IMG/VR virus record: IMGVR_UViG_3300027792_000010
DNA from: a virus
DNA: 64,000 bases
Reading direction: 5' to 3' (one strand)
Shown here piece by piece: positions 6,643 to 58,802 of this stretch. Every line of letters starts with the position of its first letter. Within the stretch, counting starts at the first letter, position 1. The translations under genes were made by a program, and so were the position numbers. A model generated the notes under the pieces. It searched no databases. It was not told where the DNA came from and saw nothing but the letters and a program-made list of their open reading frames with translations.

Positions 6643-7356
6643 TTAGTTATTATTAGGTGGCTCAGGTAGATACATCCAGTGTGTAATATTTTCTACATCT
6701 TCTCTACCATACATGACTACAAATACTCCATCTATGTAGGTACCTCTCATTCTATTCTTTCCATCCCACAATAGTAGTTCAAAACCTTCCGTTGGTTTTC
6801 TGCTCTGGACTTTATACCAGAAGTATTCTCTAAAAGGGCCTACATCCTCGAATGGTTTGGGGGTATCGGGACGGTTATCCATGATAGTTTTTATTTCATT
6901 GAAAGATACAGGGCAATAGTTGAATTCGTCCACCCCTACATCCAGGCTTTTTCCCCAGGGGGGAAGAGCAGCATGTGTGTGCCCATAGAGCATATAGGAG
7001 CCGTAGTGGGATGCATCCCAGGTACGCATAGAGTAATGGCAGAGTACTATAAATTGACCTTCTACTCTGATTTTATCAATAAATTTAATAGATTTAAAGA
7101 GGTCTTTCCTATTTATTGCTTCGTGGTCGTGGTTTCCGGCGATAAGATGGATTTCACCATTTAGTCTTTTGGTATATCTGGAAGGATTATGCCAGCAAAA
7201 GTCTCCAAGTACATAAATGGTATCTGTAGGTTTGACTCTACCATTCCAGTTAGCTATAAGTGTTTCGTCCATTTCTTCTACAGTAGAGAAGGGACGATTA
7301 CAATACTTCATTATGTTAGTGTGGCCAAAATGATTATCTGCGGTAAAGTAGACCAT
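6643..7356 (-). CDS. calcineurin-like metallophosphoesterase with C-terminal DUF551-like tail
   Basis: D.HFGH, LGDF, GNHD, HY, GH.H motifs; THWMYLPEPP tail. Confidence 0.85.
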   Translation of the reverse strand: MVYFTADNHFGHTNIMKYCNRPFSTVEEMDETLIANWNGRVKPTDTIYVLGDFCWHNPSRYTKRLNGEIHLIAGNHDHEAINRKDLFKSIKFIDKIRVEGQFIVLCHYSMRTWDASHYGSYMLYGHTHAALPPWGKSLDVGVDEFNYCPVSFNEIKTIMDNRPDTPKPFEDVGPFREYFWYKVQSRKPTEGFELLLWDGKNRMRGTYIDGVFVVMYGREDVENITHWMYLPEPPNNN

Positions 7357-28995: not shown

Positions 28996-30313
28996 GTTCA
29001 TAAAAACTTGGACAAATCCAAATTAGTATGTCTTTGTTCTTGAGGGACGGTAGACTCCTCAATCGATCCAAAATGAAGTATATTTTTAGATGCATTATAA
29101 TCTGCATCACATGTATACCCACAAGATATACACTCATATACTTCTCCTTGTCTTGAATCTTTGTGGGTCTCCCCACAAGATGAACATCTCTGAGAAGTAT
29201 AAGCAGGAGATATTTTGATCAGATGAACACGGTTCTCTTCACAAATATCTTCGATCCTTCTATACACTTGTCTCAGGTTCCAATGAGCCTGTTCAGCTCT
29301 TTGAAATTTGTTCATACGTCTTTCTTGACGTGTTTTATGATTCATATTTATTAAATCCTCCATGACTACAGTTTTGTATTCATGGAGGTTAAGTTTCTTT
29401 ATCTCACAATCTATATAATCTTTCAAACTATTTAACGCTTGATTATAGTTCTTACTATGCTTCTTTTTTCTTAATAAATTCTGGATTTTAGAAGTTATCT
29501 CGGTACCGAGGAAACGACCATCAGAACATGAAAATAATTTATTTCTTCCAAGGTCTATTCCTAATGTTTTAAACTTAGCTATTGGGGTATCTTGAATATC
29601 TTTTTGAAAGAATAAGTTTGCATAGTACCTGTTTTGTTCTTTATTAAAATATAGTGTTAGGGATTTAGATAAGGAATAGCCACTATTACATAACTTATTA
29701 TACTGTCTATGCTTATGAGATGGAAGTATAAGTGAAAACCTGTTACCAAAAATGGAACCAAGTCTGATCCACAGGTCAAAACTTGAAGAAGTTTTTGACT
29801 CTTGTACATGGCATAGGTCAGAGTTTAGTTCTATAGTAGAACCATCAAATATAGGTTTATTTATTCTCGGTCTAAAAGTTTTACCTTTAGACCAAACAGA
29901 CCACGTTTTATTTACTATGGGATATTTTTTCTTCTTAGATTTAGCTTTAGCGTATATTTTTTTATATTTTGAATATATTCTTTTTTTATTATTAGTGTGA
30001 GCTGATTTAAGTATTTTCATAGCTTGATTACCTGCACACTTCATAGCTTTACCAAGTAACCAAGAGTATATTTGTTTATAGTGATTTGAGTTTATTTTAG
30101 AAGGTAGTTTTTCTTTTAACCAGTACAGGTCTATAAAGACATTAACGACTCTTTGATATTCTTCAAAGAATGATTTAAGTTTATCGATTTTAAAATTAGT
30201 AGCCTCATTCAAGGATACTTGAGATCGTTTAATAAGTTTCATAGTATTTATAGCCAAGTAAGAAATGTATAATATTATCTAAATATGTCTAAATTTTCTT
30301 TAAATAGTTTCAA
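28996..30313 (-). mobile_element. non-autonomous IS607-like element carrying only tnpB
   Basis: flanked by GG at both junctions (GGAGGG|TTGAAAC...AAGTTTTTATGAAC|GG); tnpB fills the element; no TnpA. Confidence 0.75.
28998..30242 (-). CDS. tnpB: RNA-guided endonuclease TnpB (Cas12f-like)
   Basis: RuvC GIDLG, VMEDL, PAYTSQRCSSCG, CISCG..DADYNASKNI; ATG 30242 (ORF track starts 30257). Confidence 0.9.
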   Translation of the reverse strand: MKLIKRSQVSLNEATNFKIDKLKSFFEEYQRVVNVFIDLYWLKEKLPSKINSNHYKQIYSWLLGKAMKCAGNQAMKILKSAHTNNKKRIYSKYKKIYAKAKSKKKKYPIVNKTWSVWSKGKTFRPRINKPIFDGSTIELNSDLCHVQESKTSSSFDLWIRLGSIFGNRFSLILPSHKHRQYNKLCNSGYSLSKSLTLYFNKEQNRYYANLFFQKDIQDTPIAKFKTLGIDLGRNKLFSCSDGRFLGTEITSKIQNLLRKKKHSKNYNQALNSLKDYIDCEIKKLNLHEYKTVVMEDLINMNHKTRQERRMNKFQRAEQAHWNLRQVYRRIEDICEENRVHLIKISPAYTSQRCSSCGETHKDSRQGEVYECISCGYTCDADYNASKNILHFGSIEESTVPQEQRHTNLDLSKFL

Positions 30314-34931: not shown

Positions 34932-35040
34932 CGGAGGGTGAGGGATTTGAACCCCCAAACCCGTAAGGGTGACGGTTTTCGCCGGAACATCTCATGGGTG
35001 TGCCGACAAGACCGTTGACTTACCATTAGCCTAACCCTCC
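34932..35040 (-). tRNA. tRNA-Ser(UGA) with 27-nt hairpin insertion in the anticodon (34980-35006)
   Basis: ACGGT-CTTG[27 nt]AAA-ACCGT, long V arm, G73. Confidence 0.88.
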
Positions 35041-41643: not shown

Positions 41644-41755
41644 TGGTGGTAGAGAGAGGATTTGAACCTCTGTACCCCGAAGGGAGCGGATTTGCTAAGT
41701 TCACCGCTCGGATGAACTTAACAGTCCGCCGCTTTTTCCACTCAGCCACTCTACC
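41644..41755 (-). tRNA. tRNA-Tyr(GUA) with 27-nt hairpin insertion in the anticodon (41694-41720)
   Basis: GCGGA-CTGT[27 nt]AAA-TCCGC, long V arm, G1-C72, A73, CCA. Confidence 0.88.
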
Positions 41756-42563: not shown

Positions 42564-42576
42564 CTATTTATAGATG

Positions 42577-42621
42577 GGCTATATTCCTGCGGAGCAATAC
42601 TGCTCGTACAGGAATGTAGCC
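42577..42621 (-). other. long hairpin upstream of tRNA-Cys
   Basis: GGCTA-C-ATTCCTG..GAGCA-GTAT-TGCTC..CAGGAAT-A-TAGCC. Confidence 0.6.
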
Positions 42622-42779
42622 ATTTATTTAGAAACAGTTATTTCCGTTTCACAAAGTGCTTATTACATCGAACCATGACTGTCAAAGAACTTAAAAACAA
42701 CCTACCAGATCATATAGCACCTTGGCGTAACCTCGCCTACCACAACTCCGATCTGGCCCAGGGGCACTGCCGGGCTATG

Positions 42780-42965
42780 TTATTTCATAGTTTCTGGTTG
42801 TATTTTAATTACTCGTACCCTATCAAGTCTTTTACGTATCTTATCTTCAGGGAGCATAGAAACTAATCTTCGTGCCTCCGCTTTACTCAGACAAATACGT
42901 TTCTCTATAATTCCATCTATCAATTCTTTAGCTTTCTTATCTTCTATATCCATATTATCCTCCAA
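42780..42965 (-). CDS. small S4-like RNA-binding-domain protein
   Basis: ICLSKAEARRLV resembles the S4 motif SxSEARRLI. Confidence 0.5.
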   Translation of the reverse strand: MEDNMDIEDKKAKELIDGIIEKRICLSKAEARRLVSMLPEDKIRKRLDRVRVIKIQPETMK

Positions 42966-42970
42966 GTACT

Positions 42971-43009
42971 AAAACAAAAAACCCCGCTTCAGTTTCCTGG
43001 GCGGGGTTT
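42971..43009 (-). terminator. intrinsic terminator of attenuator 1
   Basis: AAACCCCGC...GCGGGGTTTTTT; 5' arm can instead pair with TGGGTGGG (43047-43054). Confidence 0.85.
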
Positions 43010-43037
43010 CGTATTTTTTCTGGTTTACCAGTTTACG

Positions 43038-43151
43038 TCAAGTTTTCCCACCCACCACTATATTATTACAGAGTAAATATGACAATAACCATGCGGCTGC
43101 TGTATGCAGCTTGGTCATTGTCGAACATAGTGTAGAATGGACTTTTTTCAT
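43038..43151 (-). CDS. 37-aa leader peptide of tRNA array 1 (MKKVHSTLCSTMTKLHTAAAWLLSYLLCNNIVVGGKT)
   Basis: between promoter and terminator; 21 of codons 5-28 are cognate to downstream tRNAs. Confidence 0.85.
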   Translation of the reverse strand: MKKVHSTLCSTMTKLHTAAAWLLSYLLCNNIVVGGKT

Positions 43152-43179
43152 TTTAAATACCTATTACCTTTCAATTTAT

Positions 43180-43208
43180 AATATACCATTTTGTAGAACC
43201 AAGATCAA
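43180..43208 (-). promoter_or_regulatory. sigma70-type promoter TTGATC-N17-TATATT for leader 1
   Basis: 25/29 identical to the leader-2 promoter; extended -10 TG. Confidence 0.8.
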
Positions 43209-51767: not shown

Positions 51768-52573
51768 TCTTTAATGGCTAACCTATTAGCTGTTTCTACT
51801 ATAGGTACCAAATCAAGTGCATAGAGCCCACCACAGCTAAAACTATTAATCTCCATGAGGTAGTAGCTACCCCTGCTGAGGCATATATCAACTATGTACA
51901 TAGGATCAGGTTTGTACTCTTCCGCAGCTATTACATCAGCAAGCTCTTTAGCTTTAGGATCATAGCCTTCTTGAAAAGATAGTTTTCCATCCCTTTCATA
52001 CTGACACCCAGTTATTACTTTACCTTCAGCGCAGACGAATCTCCATTCCCCATCGATAATCTTAGGAGTAGAGATAATAACCATACTGTCGGGATCAGAG
52101 AACTCTTCTACCCAACGCCACAAGGAAGGCACATTATATTTGCTATATACTCCAGCTGTCCATGGTTTTAGTCCTGAACTCGGTCTAAAGAAAAGCTCTT
52201 CACGAACGAAACATTTGTCATAAAGCCAATCAAGTCTTCTTAGAACATCGGCTCTTGGGAGCATGACATACTCCCAGTTGAAGAGATATTTCCCGAAGTG
52301 AGCATAGTATCTGGTACATTCATAGTTTTTTGCTGTGAGCCAGGGTCCAGGAATCCATTGTTTTTCACGCTGAAGCTGCTGTGCAAGATTGATTGATCCT
52401 TGGAAGAGAACGCAATCGTTTCCCCCGAATATATCATAGGAGCCAGCCTGGAATGGAGTGTAGGTGATAACTTCAACATCACATCCTTGCCGTCTACATT
52501 CATCGGCAAGAGGACCGAATTTGTTGTCCGGTTCGAAATCTTCGATGACCCATTTTGGTCGTATACTAGACAT
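51746..52573 (-). CDS. ATP-grasp (DUF4343/R2K-like) protein
   Basis: FFRP..G.K.W.AG, EWRF, YIVDI, MEINSFSCGGLY. Confidence 0.8.
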   Translation of the reverse strand: MSSIRPKWVIEDFEPDNKFGPLADECRRQGCDVEVITYTPFQAGSYDIFGGNDCVLFQGSINLAQQLQREKQWIPGPWLTAKNYECTRYYAHFGKYLFNWEYVMLPRADVLRRLDWLYDKCFVREELFFRPSSGLKPWTAGVYSKYNVPSLWRWVEEFSDPDSMVIISTPKIIDGEWRFVCAEGKVITGCQYERDGKLSFQEGYDPKAKELADVIAAEEYKPDPMYIVDICLSRGSYYLMEINSFSCGGLYALDLVPIVETANRLAIKEWEDYQK

Positions 52574-52705
52574 CCTATGCTCCTACAGTTAAATGATTTT
52601 CTTAGATAATGAGTTTGATATACAGGTTGTACACCACTTGATAAAAAACGGATAATAGGTTTTTCCCAGGGGTCATCTGCTAACCACAGATTACTTCTCG
52701 GAGTT

Positions 52706-52918
52706 TCAAAAAAGTCTTTTATCATTACTTTGTTCATGTAATTTTTTATCCTCTAAAGATTTTAAATACTCCAGATATAGAAAGGATTTCCCAATGATCG
52801 GTGATCCATAAATAGCGTTAAAAGGTGGTACATACCAAGGATCATCTGAACGCCAGGAACGAGCACTCTCTCGATCCATTATAACTAATTGCCTACCTTC
52901 AGTATCTACATAGACCAT
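52706..52918 (-). CDS. WxxDDPW-family small protein
   Basis: WRSDDPW; AGGAG RBS. Confidence 0.65.
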   Translation of the reverse strand: MVYVDTEGRQLVIMDRESARSWRSDDPWYVPPFNAIYGSPIIGKSFLYLEYLKSLEDKKLHEQSNDKRLF

Positions 52919-53001
52919 TCGTAATCTCCTATATGATGGATATTTTCGTAGTGTTCCATTAATTCTTCTATTGTTTTTTTATATCATAGGAATCTATTAT
53001 C

Positions 53002-53061
53002 CTATTCAAAATCTTTCCTATCCCCCCAAGGATCATCGCTGTCCCAGGTTTCTTGAAGCAT
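53002..53061 (-). CDS. 19-aa WxxDDPW micropeptide MLQETWDSDDPWGDRKDFE
   Basis: AGGAGG and GGAG upstream of ATG; below ORF-track cut-off. Confidence 0.6.
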   Translation of the reverse strand: MLQETWDSDDPWGDRKDFE

Positions 53062-53329
53062 CTCTCCAGCCTCCTAAAGCCTCTACTAACTTTTTGGCTT
53101 CTTGATTTGATACTGACATCTCAAAAGTACTTGTATGCCCCCCATGAAAGTATCTAAAATCTACCAAGAACCAAGGATCGTCAGAGTACCACGGGGTCGA
53201 TAAATTGACAGTCATCGGAAAGGTGCTGAACCCATGATACTTCGAAAAATGAGGGACCTGTGCCACACCTGTGCCACAATCTACTCTTATAATCAACCAG
53301 GGGTCATCTGCTAACCACACTTGATCCAT
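53033..53329 (-). CDS. WxxDDPW-family protein with two motifs
   Basis: WLADDPW and WYSDDPW. Confidence 0.7.
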   Translation of the reverse strand: MDQVWLADDPWLIIRVDCGTGVAQVPHFSKYHGFSTFPMTVNLSTPWYSDDPWFLVDFRYFHGGHTSTFEMSVSNQEAKKLVEALGGWRDASRNLGQR

Positions 53330-53507
53330 ACTTACTCTCTAATATTAAGGGATCTTTCCTTAACTCCTCCATAGTAACATTTATTTCTTCCATCGAAGGC
53401 ATAGGAGGAACAATAATTGGCTTAAACCATCCCCAAGGATCATCAGAAAACCAAATATCGTGATTATAAACACATAAGGTTGGTTTAGATAACTTAATAG
53501 AACTCAT
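53304..53507 (-). CDS. WxxDDPW-family small protein
   Basis: WFSDDPW. Confidence 0.65.
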   Translation of the reverse strand: MSSIKLSKPTLCVYNHDIWFSDDPWGWFKPIIVPPMPSMEEINVTMEELRKDPLILESKYGSSVVSR

Positions 53508-53558
53508 AAAACTAATATACTATTTGGAAAACTCAAATTAAATAAGTTTCCAAAAGTC

Positions 53559-53852
53559 TTAGTTAGGGATACGAAATTTAGGAGGGCAATCTTGCTGGGA
53601 GGCACATAACTTTTTTTCAAACTCTTCTGCTTCTTTATCCCAATCTCTACCATCATATTGATGAAGTTTATCATAGGCACATGAAGCACAATAATATTCG
53701 AACTCATCCTCTCCTGTTGGAGAAGCCCATATCGGCTCCCCAATTACTGCTTCCTTGCACATACAATCGTAAGGATCTTCTACCTTGAAATTACACCTTA
53801 GAAAGTGCTCATCTAATTCTTCTTCCCTCGTGGTCATAATCCTTTCCTCCAC
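53559..53852 (-). CDS. hypothetical protein
   Basis: ORF; Cys pairs. Confidence 0.5.
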   Translation of the reverse strand: MEERIMTTREEELDEHFLRCNFKVEDPYDCMCKEAVIGEPIWASPTGEDEFEYYCASCAYDKLHQYDGRDWDKEAEEFEKKLCASQQDCPPKFRIPN

Positions 53853-53860
53853 ATCTTTGC

Positions 53861-54073
53861 TCAGCCTCCTGAAGTCTCAAAGTACATAGCTAACATAGCT
53901 TCTTCAGTTATCCAAGGATCGTCAGAAATCCAGATAACTTTAGTACTACCTAATAGATCTATAACTTTTGCTACCGCAGGATCTACTGAGCTATACATTT
54001 TTCTATAGTACCTTCTCTTCTTTAGCTCCTCTGATATCAAAGAATCGTCAGAATCCTGTAGTTTCATTAGCAA
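53861..54073 (-). CDS. WxxDDPW-family small protein
   Basis: WISDDPW. Confidence 0.6.
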   Translation of the reverse strand: MLMKLQDSDDSLISEELKKRRYYRKMYSSVDPAVAKVIDLLGSTKVIWISDDPWITEEAMLAMYFETSGG

Positions 54074-54389
54074 AAGCCTTTATATCATTATATGTTTCTT
54101 CATCTAAATATATAGTATTAGGTACTAAAGGAAAATTAGTAATACGATCAAAAGCTTCCATAATGTCGTTTATAACCCAAGGGTCATCTGAGTACCATAT
54201 CTTACCACATAGCGTATCTACTTTTATCAAATCACGATCTTTTAATAGGTCGTGATAAGAACCGTCATTAGACTTTGCTGTATCTAAGTTCCAATCAGCA
54301 TTTACGCCATATACAGAATAATCGCTAGGGCAGTTTCGCTTTGCTTCCTCATAGTTGTCCCACACTGTCCCTCCAGCATAATCTTTCAT
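54048..54389 (-). CDS. WxxDDPW-family protein
   Basis: WYSDDPW. Confidence 0.65.
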   Translation of the reverse strand: MKDYAGGTVWDNYEEAKRNCPSDYSVYGVNADWNLDTAKSNDGSYHDLLKDRDLIKVDTLCGKIWYSDDPWVINDIMEAFDRITNFPLVPNTIYLDEETYNDIKAFANETTGF

Positions 54390-54516
54390 GCGTCATGCGC
54401 CCCTTTTTCTTTGGTGTGCCTTGCTCTTTAAAGTAGGTTTCATAGTTTGTAGTGTGACCGATAGTGTAAATCATAGCAATAATATACTAATTAGGAAGGA
54501 AGTTTTAAATATAAAA

Positions 54517-54605
54517 CGGAAGGTACAGGATTTGAACCTGTGAAGGTATTTAAACTCCCTGACGGTTTAGCAAACCGTTGCAATAGGCCGCTCTGCCAAC
54601 CTTCC
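54517..54605 (-). tRNA. tRNA-Ser(GCU)
   Basis: ACGGT-TTGCTAA-ACCGT, long V arm, G73. Confidence 0.94.
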
Positions 54606-54645
54606 ATTATTTTTTCTTTATGTTTCTTTTGTCCATAATCGAAAA

Positions 54646-54722
54646 TGGTGGGAGTATCACGAATTGAACGTGAGACCTTTCGGTTATCAGCCGAACGCTC
54701 TAACCATCTGAGCTATACTCCC
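54646..54722 (-). tRNA. tRNA-Ile(GAU)
   Basis: TTCGG-CTGATAA-CCGAA, CCA. Confidence 0.95.
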
Positions 54723-54737
54723 TATAAGCTATTAGGT

Positions 54738-54813
54738 TGGTAGCGGAATGTTGGAGTTGAACCAACTTAACCAAGTTTATGAGACTCGGTGAGATGCCGA
54801 CCTCCCACCCGCG
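54738..54813 (-). tRNA. tRNA-Met(CAU), initiator-like
   Basis: CGCGGG start with C1 mismatch, loop CTCATAA, CCA; lacks the three G-C anticodon pairs. Confidence 0.8.
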
Positions 54814-54825
54814 ATGTATTTAAAA

Positions 54826-54896
54826 TAGTGAGAATCAGAATCGAACTGATCTAAACAGGATATGAGCCTGTTGAGGGGCCACTCCTCAATCTCACT
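54826..54896 (-). tRNA. tRNA-Met(CAU) (elongator Met or Ile2)
   Basis: ACAGG-CTCATAT-CCTGT. Confidence 0.85.
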
Positions 54897-54905
54897 GTAT
54901 GTTTA

Positions 54906-54981
54906 TGGCGGGGACGACGGGTTACGATCCCGCTCTCTTTGGCTTGACAAGCCAATGCTTTCCCGATTAAGCTACGTCCCC
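54906..54981 (-). tRNA. tRNA-Asp(GUC)
   Basis: TTGGC-TTGTCAA-GCCAA, G73, CCA; T loop ATCGTAA. Confidence 0.92.
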
Positions 54982-54991
54982 TAATATTTAA

Positions 54992-55474
54992 TTAATCCTC
55001 ACCTTCATAATCTATGATAGGTACTATTCTTACGTTCCTATCCTTATTGCCCCTAAGTATACGCTCAGCCTCTTTGTAACTATCGAATACTGTACTATCT
55101 ACAGTTCCTATTAAGGGGTCCAAAAATACATACCCTACTTTAAGACCTTGTTTCTTTAGATTCTCCAAAGCTGTATCTAAGTATTCTATCTTCTGCTTCT
55201 GTAATACAAATCCTATATTCAAATCAAAGACACGAACTAATTCATCATACTCTTTGTCTGGTAGGAATCCCTTCAAAAGGCATAAAGAACCTACGCAGCT
55301 TTCTAAGTATTTTCCGATTTTCAGAGAATGAAGTACATAGTAATAGCCATCCTCGTCTTCATCGAATCCTACTAATCTCACAACTTCGTGGAAGTCTATA
55401 AGTAGTTCTCCTTTATGTTTCTCTATAAACTCTAAAATCTCTGGCTTAGGATCTTTAAACTCTGATATGTCCAC
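54992..55474 (-). CDS. hypothetical protein inside tRNA array 2
   Basis: AGGAG RBS, GTG start. Confidence 0.65.
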   Translation of the reverse strand: MDISEFKDPKPEILEFIEKHKGELLIDFHEVVRLVGFDEDEDGYYYVLHSLKIGKYLESCVGSLCLLKGFLPDKEYDELVRVFDLNIGFVLQKQKIEYLDTALENLKKQGLKVGYVFLDPLIGTVDSTVFDSYKEAERILRGNKDRNVRIVPIIDYEGED

Positions 55475-55495: not shown

Positions 55496-55571
55496 TGGTG
55501 CCGCCTTTCGGAGTTGAACCGAATTCTTTAGCTCTTCAGGCTAACGCAATCACCGGACTTGCTCAAGCGGC
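55496..55571 (-). tRNA. tRNA-Phe(GAA)
   Basis: TTAGC-CTGAAGA-GCTAA, CCA. Confidence 0.94.
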
Positions 55572-55621
55572 ATATAATTTGCCTTTGTAATTCTCTTACA
55601 TCAGATAGGCTATATTAAAAT

Positions 55622-55657
55622 AAAAAAGCCCCCGAACTTCTCAGTCCGGGGGCTTTT
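55622..55657 (-). terminator. intrinsic terminator of attenuator 2
   Basis: GCCCCCGGAC-TGAGAA-GTTCGGGGGC-TTTTTT; 5' arm can instead pair with GGTCCGGG (55674-55681). Confidence 0.88.
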
Positions 55658-55680
55658 ATAAGCTACTTGTTTACCCGGAC

Positions 55681-55758
55681 CTATACAATACTATCAAACA
55701 TACTATCAAAACTGATAGTATCGCTGTTGATGATAATGCTGAAAGTAGAGGTACACAT
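55681..55758 (-). CDS. 25-aa leader peptide of tRNA array 2 (MCTSTFSIIINSDTISFDSMFDSIV)
   Basis: 17 of codons 6-24 are cognate to the downstream Phe/Asp/Met/Ile/Ser(GCU) tRNAs. Confidence 0.85.
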   Translation of the reverse strand: MCTSTFSIIINSDTISFDSMFDSIV

Positions 55759-55798
55759 TGAAAATAGTTTTCCTTGAAAAAGTTTTTGTTCTGTCTTT

Positions 55799-55827
55799 AA
55801 TATACCACTTTGTAATACAAAGATCAA
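55799..55827 (-). promoter_or_regulatory. sigma70-type promoter TTGATC-N17-TATATT for leader 2
   Basis: near-copy of the leader-1 promoter. Confidence 0.8.
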
Positions 55828-55834
55828 ATAAATT

Positions 55835-56110
55835 TTAAGAATACATCAAAGTATCTGAAAGAGACTTAGGCATAGACATACTCCTCAGGTACCCACCACC
55901 ACCTGTCCCCTGGTGCTGAGTAGGCTTAATCGGGGCGTGAGTGCTATCACCCTGCACAACTGGATTGTAGTTCTGAGAGTTGTCTACAACGTTACCGCTA
56001 GTATTACCCATCTTTTGATCTCTTGGACTAGTTGTCCCCCGTCCTGTATTATTCTGCGTAAAACTTGCCATACCAGCAAAGACTACATCTACTGATTTAT
56101 CTGCTGCCAT
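55835..56110 (-). CDS. small low-complexity protein, putative late gene
   Basis: AAGGAG RBS; ATAATCTTTTAATA motif upstream. Confidence 0.6.
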   Translation of the reverse strand: MAADKSVDVVFAGMASFTQNNTGRGTTSPRDQKMGNTSGNVVDNSQNYNPVVQGDSTHAPIKPTQHQGTGGGGYLRSMSMPKSLSDTLMYS

Positions 56111-57088: not shown

Positions 57089-57870
57089 ACTGTTTTTACT
57101 TTCACTTTATAGGTTTTGTAGAAATCTCTGGTGATATTATGAAACTCTTCCGGTAGTAATTCTACAGTTTTTTGAGCAATATCTTTAGGGATTTCTTTAT
57201 AGAAAGCCTGAGCTATACCTCCGGCAATACATGCCATAGTATCCGCATCGCCATTAAGTCTTATAGCTTTTTTGATCGCGTCTATAAAGGAATCGGACTC
57301 AAGAAAACAAATGATAGATTCAGGTACTGACCCCTGACACGTCGCATCGAATTTGTAGGTCGGTGCGATATCTACCAGAGTACGATTAAGGTCATATCCA
57401 AAACTTTTTGATATGACTCTCTTAATCTCTTCTTTGGATTTCCCAATGCGTGCCATATAAACTGCTAAAGCTGTAGCTTGAGCACCTTTGATACCTTCTG
57501 GATGACTATGAGTACACTCTGCGCTTTTTTTAGCCTCTTCTAAGACCTTCCTAGGGTTATCAAAAGCATACCCTATAGGACTTACCCTCATGGCAGAACC
57601 ATTGCCAAAACTATTAAAAGGGGCATTAGAAGAAGAATCTAACCAATCTTGAAACATCCCGCCATATCCCCGACCTGGGTATCTATTACCGAAGTCTTTG
57701 TAACACTCACCATAGCTCTTCCCCGTTAGGATGGCTGAGCAGGTAGCGAAAGACATTACAGAGTCATCCGTGTAATCAGTCCCATCTGCAAACAATTCAA
57801 AATCATATACTTCTGTTTTCTTCCATTCATATGCACTCCCGATCACGTCACCTATGCAGGCACCCAGCAT
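57085..57870 (-). CDS. ADP-ribosylglycohydrolase (DraG/ARH family)
   Basis: G..IGD..GS.YE, TDDS, GNGSAMRVSP, THSHPEG, GDADT; ATG 57870. Confidence 0.92.
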   Translation of the reverse strand: MLGACIGDVIGSAYEWKKTEVYDFELFADGTDYTDDSVMSFATCSAILTGKSYGECYKDFGNRYPGRGYGGMFQDWLDSSSNAPFNSFGNGSAMRVSPIGYAFDNPRKVLEEAKKSAECTHSHPEGIKGAQATALAVYMARIGKSKEEIKRVISKSFGYDLNRTLVDIAPTYKFDATCQGSVPESIICFLESDSFIDAIKKAIRLNGDADTMACIAGGIAQAFYKEIPKDIAQKTVELLPEEFHNITRDFYKTYKVKVKTV

Positions 57871-58802
57871 GATATACCGCCTTTCACTCTTTCTTTTTCG
57901 TATCCCAACCATTCTTTCCACGATATCCAACCTTTATTTAGATATGTACGGCTAGGAAAAGAAGGTATAGTGATTGGTCTACTACCACTTTTACAAAAAC
58001 ATTCCCATTCGGTTTTACTTTGTATATTAAATTTTTTAATATATTCTTTAGCTTCTGAATAGGGCATAAAACCTGTTTTTAAGACTATTATACCTTTTAT
58101 TTTATAAAATTTATTATATTTTCTTAACAATTTTAAGCTACTATCTCTATACATGAAATCTCTTAATAGTATTGAATTATTGTTAGAAAACCTTGTGCTA
58201 TAATAAATGCTGTCTTTAGGTCTTGTATAGTCAAATAACTTTTCACCCTTTTTTCTAACTTTTATGTAAATAATACCGTGTATACCTTTTATGCTACTTT
58301 CTATTGCTTCTAATAATTTATATGCTAACTCTTTGCTCCCTGAAGTGAAATCTGTTTCAAGATTATTATTATCTTTTAGAATGCTCACGCTCCCATCTCC
58401 GTCAAAGTACCCTCTAATAAAGTCTGGTAAATATTCCTGAGGGACTGTTGGAAATCCAATATCTAAACTTTTTCTTTCTTTTCCTCCAAGATTTTTTATA
58501 TCTTCAATTATTTCTTTTGAGTAAATACATATAAAATAATTATTTTTACAAGTTTTCTTTATAGGATGATTAGATTCCATAACTTTTAAAATATTTTCTA
58601 ATATATATTTGTCATTTTTATGCTGGCTTATTCCAAAGCATTCTTTATCTATAAATCCATCGGCCCACCAAAATCCTAAAACATAGGCCATATCTTTAGT
58701 CCAAATTTTAAAAAAATCTTGATTAACGTTATATCTTCTTGCCCCCTGATTCCACTTATTTTTCCAACGTTCCAATTTTTCTGATTGTGCTTCTTTGCTC
58801 AT
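57852..58802 (-). CDS. LAGLIDADG homing endonuclease with C-terminal DNA-binding repeat
   Basis: AYVLGFWWADG, FIRGYFDGDG; PY.EAKEY...IP..P...Y..KGW.SW..WLG. Confidence 0.88.
   Translation of the reverse strand: MSKEAQSEKLERWKNKWNQGARRYNVNQDFFKIWTKDMAYVLGFWWADGFIDKECFGISQHKNDKYILENILKVMESNHPIKKTCKNNYFICIYSKEIIEDIKNLGGKERKSLDIGFPTVPQEYLPDFIRGYFDGDGSVSILKDNNNLETDFTSGSKELAYKLLEAIESSIKGIHGIIYIKVRKKGEKLFDYTRPKDSIYYSTRFSNNNSILLRDFMYRDSSLKLLRKYNKFYKIKGIIVLKTGFMPYSEAKEYIKKFNIQSKTEWECFCKSGSRPITIPSFPSRTYLNKGWISWKEWLGYEKERVKGGISCWVPA

Follow-up and report, generated by a model that had tools for sequence, protein, structure and literature searches.

An uncultured phage with a genome of ~200 kb carries, ahead of a block of tRNA genes, a compact unit made up of a promoter, a 25-codon leader ORF, an antiterminator and an intrinsic terminator. 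The feature, termed unit 2, is real, conserved and statistically extreme. The genome has at least three such units, and each leader draws on the codons that its own block of tRNAs reads. We consider it likely that unit 2 acts as a transcription attenuator of the ribosome-mediated, leader-peptide kind and in this way gates a phage tRNA operon. The phage probably makes the tRNAs of block 2 only when ribosomes read the matching codons slowly, a mechanism that is inferred. The attenuator reading is drawn from sequence and has no experimental or transcript-end evidence behind it.

Organization of the unit 2 locus

Positions are those of the 64-kb stretch of DNA that was analysed as a whole, referred to as the window. 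The features of unit 2 and its surroundings are as follows.

Ends at 55835, minus strand: upstream gene encoding a 91-aa protein
55827 down to 54516, minus strand: unit 2 (promoter, leader ORF, antiterminator and terminator) together with the tRNA block behind it
55799..55827, minus strand: promoter, TTGATC-N17-TATATT plus a TG extension (extended -10)
55771..55775, minus strand: Shine-Dalgarno-like AAGGA, 12 nt 5' of the leader ATG
55681..55758, minus strand: leader ORF 2, MCTSTFSIIINSDTISFDSMFDSIV, 25 codons, with ATG at 55758 and TAG at 55683-55681
Codons 6-24 of leader ORF 2, minus strand: control zone, with F, S (AGY), I (ATY), D and M
55743..55757, minus strand: region 1, ORF codons 1-5, pairing with the stop-codon/region-2 segment in untranslated RNA
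55685..55739, minus strand: inner hairpin within leader ORF 2, 22 bp, apex at codons 16-17
55674..55681, minus strand: region 2, GGTCCGGG, 5' strand of the antiterminator, sharing the G of the TAG stop
55643..55650, minus strand: region 3, CCCGGACT, common to the antiterminator and the terminator 5' arm
55617..55657, minus strand: intrinsic terminator, with hairpin 55657-55624 (15-bp stem, 4-nt loop) and U tract to 55617
55496..55571, minus strand: tRNA-Phe(GAA), the first gene after the terminator
54992..55474, minus strand: 160-aa ORF of unknown function, within the tRNA block between tRNA-Phe and tRNA-Asp
54516..54981, minus strand: tRNA-Asp(GUC), tRNA(CAU), tRNA(CAU), tRNA-Ile(GAU) and tRNA-Ser(GCU)

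The exact promoter pattern has three matches in the window against 0.02 expected, and 2/3 of them head leader units. The AAGGA motif of leader 2 is weaker and farther from the start codon than the Shine-Dalgarno motifs of neighbouring genes; translation of the ORF is inferred. A first-pass annotation of this DNA had described a 25-codon leader in which 17 of codons 6-24 are TTY, GAT, ATG, ATY or AGY, and such a leader is present. It had also proposed that 55674-55681 pairs with 55643-55650 over 8 bp. These segments are regions 2 and 3, and they do form 8 bp, one of them G-U. The terminator, at -25.7 kcal/mol, is the top hairpin-plus-U-tract of the 64-kb window, and a scan of the window between it and tRNA-Phe found no promoter-like site. 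In the full-length minimum-energy fold region 1 forms a helix with region 2 (1:2 pairing). The inner hairpin may serve as an RNA polymerase pause hairpin.

The six tRNA genes that had been noted from 55571 onward (Phe, Asp, CAU, CAU, Ile and Ser(GCU)) are all there and extend down to 54516; the gene for the 160-aa protein among them had gone unmentioned. Past tRNA-Ser(GCU), ~11 kb of protein genes precede the next unit. Given the protein gene inside the block and the protein genes after it, unit 2 may gate more than tRNAs.

These parts were compared with those expected of an attenuator. There is a short ORF with a Shine-Dalgarno-like motif between the promoter and the first gene, the control codons are far above background, a terminator lies between the leader ORF and the gated genes, and an antiterminator shares a strand with that terminator. 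The expected geometry, in which region 2 is masked by a ribosome at the stop codon but left free by one stalled at a control codon, is found in the folding model for all three units. Behind an attenuator one would also expect genes for making the sensed amino acid or for charging it; here they are tRNA genes plus the 160-aa ORF instead.

The 160-aa ORF is kept between tRNA-Phe and tRNA-Asp in relatives, and from this constant place the protein is presumably co-regulated with the flanking tRNAs. The ORF had no match in Pfam. Its AlphaFold model has a mean pLDDT of 59.7, which was too poor for a structural fold search. Sequencing runs were examined as contigs only. The sole RNA library, X11, yielded one exact 151-nt contig, 54874-55024, reaching from the end of the 160-aa ORF across tRNA-Asp into tRNA(CAU); no X11 contig matched leader 2. 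The contig does no more than hint weakly at a precursor across the ORF end, tRNA-Asp and tRNA(CAU), and DNA carry-over is possible. Run X2, from a 2024 soil study, contains exact pieces of the unit 2 locus, so the phage occurs beyond its source sample.

Other genes near the locus are recorded here in their own right. At least seven small ORFs lie in a row on the minus strand of the window at 52240-54389, each with the motif [AS]DDPW (for example LWLADDPW, RSDDPWYVPP, WFSDDPWGWF and WYSDDPWVIND). They form a paralogous family, and a Pfam match was absent for the one member tested. Genes resembling IS605 OrfB/TnpB (Cas12f-like TNB domain) occur at 28998-30257 of the window, at 8346-9602 of contig L052 and at 16104-17246 of the relative L011.

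Codon match between leader 2 and its tRNA block

The cognate set was defined by strict wobble rules, under which the five anticodons read TTY, GAY, ATG, ATY and AGY (nine codons). Cognate codons account for 17/24 of the leader 2 codons after the start, compared with 19.3% in long ORFs (binomial P ~6e-8). All 17 fall in codons 6-24 (17/19). A six-frame scan covered 38,568 24-codon windows in the 64-kb window and 51,071 20-codon windows across 73.5 kb, and among all stop-free windows scored leader 2 was the maximum for its codon set.

Synonymous codon choice was examined for Ser and Ile. Of the Ser codons, 34% are AGY in long ORFs as against 5/5 in the leader 2 control zone. For the whole leader the figure is 5/6, the count from which a match to Ser(GCU) had first been drawn, and it is correct. 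ATA is the main Ile codon of the phage (54%) vs 0/5 in leader 2. We caution that the cognate codons are not fully independent, because 12 of them sit in the hairpin and a tandem repeat of GATAGTAT. Also, block 2 has two tRNA(CAU) genes, yet leader 2 has a single internal ATG. If one tRNA(CAU) were a lysidine-modified Ile2 species, the absence of ATA from the leader would not fit.

Sibling units

Unit 2 has two siblings in the same genome, one inside the window and one outside it.

42975..43208, minus strand: sibling unit 1, comprising a promoter of the same class, a leader of 37 codons, a terminator and the antiterminator TGGGTGGG/CCCGCCCA
tRNA block of unit 1: Cys, five Leu, Tyr, Trp, His, Ser(UGA), Thr and two Ala
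Contig L052, 6 kb past the window end: sibling unit 3, with the same promoter class, a 28-codon leader, an antiterminator and a terminator

The terminator of unit 1 ranks third strongest in the window, and the first gene after it is a 58-aa ORF, not a tRNA. Leader 1 holds a cognate codon for each of the 13 tRNA species, including the five Leu isoacceptors. Coverage of 13/13 species is reached by ~1e-4 of random peptides, and leader 1 is likewise the global maximum for its own codon set. Unit 1 is kept in contigs L005/L010. Unit 3 was located on L052, a 190,913-bp contig found by protein look-up and identical to the window over a 12.3-kb overlap. Its leader contains the run N-Q-N-N-P-N-P-N-P-Q-Q-P-N, and the unit is followed by exactly tRNA-Asn(GUU), Pro(UGG) and Gln(UUG).

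The first-pass annotation held that each leader fits its own array and not the other. Each leader was scored against each codon set. In leader 2, 17 codons belong to its own set and 1 to that of block 1, while leader 1 has 20/36 in its own set and 1 in the block 2 set. The result is diagonal and extends to the third unit outside the window: in the 3x3 comparison own-set scores were 11/27 (unit 3), 17/24 (unit 2) and 20/36 (unit 1), and all other scores were 1-4. In 3/3 units tRNA genes lie downstream with no promoter of their own found; unit 1 alone has another gene before them.

Several further features of the tRNA blocks were noted. Two 109-nt tRNA genes on the minus strand of the window, at 41647-41755 and 34932-35040, were detected by Rfam and missed by ARAGORN. 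Both have an intron-like insertion of ~27 nt in the anticodon loop, and by eye they read as tRNA-Tyr(GUA) and tRNA-Ser(UGA); the insertion in tRNA-Tyr(GUA) holds a perfect 7-bp hairpin. Short introns of such a kind in tRNA genes are unusual for a phage. Between the 58-aa gene of unit 1 and tRNA-Cys there are ~225 nt without an ORF (42565-42790 of the window), the 3' half of which is kept in L010; this stretch may be a structured RNA or a processing signal. About 2.5 kb past the window end, a tRNA with anticodon CUA adjoins tRNA-Gln(CUG) (L052:6938-7010 and 7095-7170). The CUA tRNA is of the amber suppressor type, labelled 'Pyl' by ARAGORN, has no leader unit ahead of it and also occurs at L010:3381-3455. 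Leaders 2 and 3 end in TAG, and the relatives of leader 2 in TGA. If TAG were suppressed late in infection, the stop of these leaders would be read through.

Conservation in relatives

Relatives were reached through homologues of the 160-aa protein, which together with the window gave only five sequence variants. Unit 2 lies before tRNA-Phe(GAA) in four distinct, diverged variants (L010, L016, L017 and L018), and its promoter is kept. The order of the tRNA genes is the same as far as the contigs reach; L010 has three tRNA(CAU) genes vs two in the window. ARAGORN reported no tRNA in L016 and no tRNA-Phe in L018, and there the GAA anticodon was read by eye. A "Tyr(AUA)" call by ARAGORN in L010 was rejected, as the gene was re-read by eye as a further tRNA(CAU), of initiator type.

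The leader ORF is kept in relatives and stops at the same codon despite a change from TAG to TGA and a 1-nt indel. The first codons, and with them the N-terminal residues, are free to vary. Control-zone replacements remain in or enter the cognate set (F to I, T to I and N to D), and L018 has an in-frame 12-nt insertion that adds an extra M-F-D-S. The cognate scores of the relatives are 19/24 to 22/28. Against the distant variants L016 and L017 the control zone is 89% identical and is the best-conserved stretch; the untranslated spacer is 54-65% and neighbouring genes are 70-82% identical (flanking genes 70-88% overall). The AAGG core is kept in 5/5 variants although the surrounding spacer is only 54-65% identical (80% in L010). 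L010, the closest relative, differs in that other parts are conserved as well as the control zone or better, with 100% identity in the stop-terminator segment, 90% in the terminator, 88% in the 160-aa gene and 80% in the spacer.

Base pairing is conserved to different degrees. The 22-bp inner hairpin is 100% paired in the five variants, with two compensatory pairs, and the terminator also has two compensatory pairs in relatives, so covariation is observed for both helices. The antiterminator is paired in 5/5 variants, and AGTCCGGG of the relatives pairs perfectly. As the antiterminator is invariant, it gains no support from covariation. The 1:2 pairing is conserved at only 60-85% across the five variants, the helix formed by region 1 (codons 1-5) being paired at 85%. 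In L010-L015, which are one lineage and identical here, tRNA-Phe begins 10 nt after the U tract and can therefore be transcribed only through the terminator. L020 has tRNA-Phe without the unit.

Several other searches gave no relative. A blastn search of GenBank phages matched only tRNA genes and returned no relative. A comparison of ten large proteins with PHROGs offered no clue to taxonomy. Neither the 160-aa protein nor a 27-mer of the leader found a relative in IMG/VR, nor did two promoter patterns, for which all 28 matches were unrelated. Contigs L021 and L051, walked upstream of the locus of a relative, had no further units and no tRNA blocks. L055, the sole relative reached via a neighbour gene of unit 3, lacks a unit and differs in the genes around it.

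The insertion sites of homing-endonuclease-like genes differ among the relatives. A LAGLIDADG gene adjoins an ADP-ribosylglycohydrolase gene in the window (57852-58802), an HNH gene lies between tRNA genes at L010:10762-11268, and in L017 (1128-1934) tRNA-Phe and the 160-aa gene are separated by an HTH/HNH-like gene.

Folding with a masked ribosome and the proposed mechanism

The transcript was folded up to region 3 with the footprint of a ribosome masked, from -15 to +12 nt around the A-site codon. In this model calculation the unit 2 antiterminator forms for stalls at codons 2-22, is weaker for one at codon 23 and no longer forms with the ribosome at codons 24-25 or the stop. For unit 1 the antiterminator forms for stalls at codons 2-29, and for unit 3 at codons 2-17. 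The run of cognate codons ends at the fold boundary in each unit (29-30 in unit 1 and 17-18 in unit 3). When the transcript was cut after region 3 and folded without a ribosome, units 2 and 1 still formed the antiterminator at minimum energy, and 1:2 pairing was not favoured in these truncated folds. The behaviour without translation is unclear in view of these ribosome-free folds and the partly conserved 1:2 pairing.

From these parts the following sequence of events is proposed. Host RNA polymerase would start at the promoter at 55827-55799 and transcribe the 25-codon ORF. Fast decoding of the Phe, Asp, Met, Ile(AUY) and Ser(AGY) codons would bring the ribosome to the stop codon, where it would cover GGUCCGGG (region 2). 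Regions 3 and 4 would then form the terminator, and the transcript would end at ~55617-55623. A ribosome that stalls in codons 6-22 for want of a cognate charged tRNA would leave region 2 free, and region 2 would pair with region 3 as it emerges; no terminator would form and the polymerase would continue. Read-through is predicted to transcribe tRNA-Phe, the 160-aa gene and tRNA-Asp/CAU/CAU/Ile/Ser(GCU). The unit would thus be a supply controller for exactly its own tRNAs, and one with negative feedback, because the products of the operon would relieve the stall. The attenuator interpretation offered by the first-pass annotation is supported by the parts, the geometry and the conservation in relatives; its mechanism, including conditional termination, remains inferred.

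Comparison with known attenuators

A full-text literature search found no description of a leader-peptide attenuator of tRNA genes. What it returned were attenuators of amino-acid, synthetase, resistance and conjugation operons together with papers on phage tRNAs. By analogy with these systems, unit 2 is inferred to act like a multivalent leader-peptide attenuator that differs in the kind of genes it gates. The enterobacterial attenuators (thrL, the ilvGMEDA leader, hisL, trpL and pheL) and unit 2 have in common a short promoter-proximal ORF with control codons, mutually exclusive antiterminator (2:3) and terminator (3:4) structures, and a stop codon sited so that a terminating ribosome masks region 2. 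Some enterobacterial leaders also read several amino acids, as the phage units do: Thr and Ile in thrL, and Ile, Leu and Val in the ilvGMEDA leader. The differences are that the phage units gate tRNA genes whereas the enterobacterial leaders gate biosynthetic enzymes, that the phage control codons are picked at the level of synonymous codons and isoacceptors, that up to 13 tRNA species are sampled per leader, and that the module is repeated ahead of each tRNA block.

In E. coli the Phe-codon-rich pheM leader of pheST senses the supply of Phe-tRNA and gates phenylalanyl-tRNA synthetase. Unit 2 resembles pheST in that a gene of the translation apparatus is gated rather than biosynthesis. It differs in that pheST is a host gene in which a synthetase is gated and not a tRNA, and a single amino acid is sensed.

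Rfam leader families were also considered. The scores of unit 2 against the family thresholds were 36.1/49 bits for His_leader (RF00514), 32.9/55 for Thr_leader (RF00506) and 19.7/55 for Phe_leader (RF01859). Membership was rejected because the scores are below the gathering threshold and the alignments are mostly terminator-borne. The His and Thr leader alignments are full-length though sub-threshold, and indicate similar architecture only.

T-boxes resemble unit 2 as terminator/antiterminator switches that read a specific tRNA state and gate translation-related genes. They differ in that they bind the tRNA directly via one specifier codon and do not need translation. No match of unit 2 to the T-box covariance model was listed in Rfam searches with E up to 1, and identity as a T-box riboswitch was rejected on this basis.

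Alternative explanations and the signal that is sensed

Classical attenuators such as trp, his, phe and thr respond to charging level. The same machinery could therefore be sensing amino-acid starvation, with the leader detecting uncharged tRNA in a starving host and the real targets being the 160-aa protein or downstream protein genes. The conserved 160-aa ORF within the block and the ~11 kb of protein genes after it would suit such targets. We nevertheless regard starvation as an unlikely signal. The leaders match at the level of anticodons: Ser is AGY in one and TCN in the other, Ile is ATY with ATA absent, and each of the five Leu tRNAs has its own Leu codon. All three units follow the tRNA set of their own block and have tRNA genes downstream for which no separate promoter was found, and added tRNA would not relieve an amino-acid shortage.

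The same points lead us to infer that tRNA supply is a better reading than amino-acid supply, although the nature of the signal is not directly shown. The match is to anticodons and not to amino acids, the genes that each unit precedes are tRNA genes with no other promoter found, more tRNA cannot cure starvation for an amino acid, and the stall would be relieved by what the operon itself makes. The tRNAs might be depleted through a poor fit of host tRNAs to phage codon usage, through tRNA decay at the time of infection or by host anticodon nucleases. Two further genes were seen, an RNA ligase gene (PF09414; L052:3909-4895) that immediately follows tRNA block 3 and, in a relative, an RNA 2'-phosphotransferase-like (Tpt1-like) gene (PF01885; L051:6430-7059). 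They suggest tRNA repair and fit a setting of tRNA damage but prove nothing.

A second explanation dispenses with regulation. The ORF could encode a small protein, or the region a small RNA, behind a fixed leaky terminator with constitutive read-through, and the codon match would be a by-product, for example of the repeat GATAGTAT. The non-independence of the 12 cognate codons in the hairpin and tandem repeat leaves room for this, as do the weak Shine-Dalgarno motif and the precedent that attenuator RNAs, once released, can act in trans (PMC6614838). It is nonetheless improbable, since the codon-to-tRNA match is repeated in two unrelated leader sequences, the replacements in relatives hold the cognate set and not the peptide, and a 1-nt indel has not uncoupled the stop codon from region 2.

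That the leader RNA senses tRNAs directly by codon-anticodon pairing, untranslated and in the manner of a T-box, is very improbable. Many cognate codons do lie near a terminator/antiterminator switch, but they fall in one frame with AAGG and ATG before them and a stop on region 2, they number 13 to 20 for 3 to 13 tRNA species, unlike a single specifier codon, and the Rfam searches described above, with E up to 1, gave no T-box match. Finally, it is scarcely tenable that the terminator, ~180 nt past the stop codon of the 91-aa gene, merely ends the transcript of that gene and that the small ORF is due to chance, because a conserved promoter separates that gene from the terminator, the ORF stands out from the whole window as the extreme for its codon set and is better conserved than the 91-aa gene (89% vs 70-78%), and tRNA-Phe would be left without a promoter.

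Significance

The reason for tRNA genes in phages and the way in which they are expressed have been debated for decades, with codon compensation set against escape from tRNA-targeting defences (PMC10264068). If the attenuator reading of unit 2 is right, a leader that reads the codons of its own downstream tRNAs implies on-demand synthesis of phage tRNAs under product feedback. The regulated quantity would be decoding capacity and not amino-acid supply.

A broader proposal, which we put forward tentatively and would not yet back, is a modular tRNA homeostat. Giant phages would autoregulate every tRNA block by its own codon-barcoded leader, measuring host decoding for each codon set and switching on only the tRNAs that are missing, for example when host tRNAs have been removed by anticodon nucleases or phage-induced decay. 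If this were true, the units would be inducible sensors for counter-defence. On the attenuator reading, the units would form a natural set of orthogonal, codon-specific sensors of tRNA availability, and classical attenuation would reach a new class of target and the resolution of single isoacceptors.
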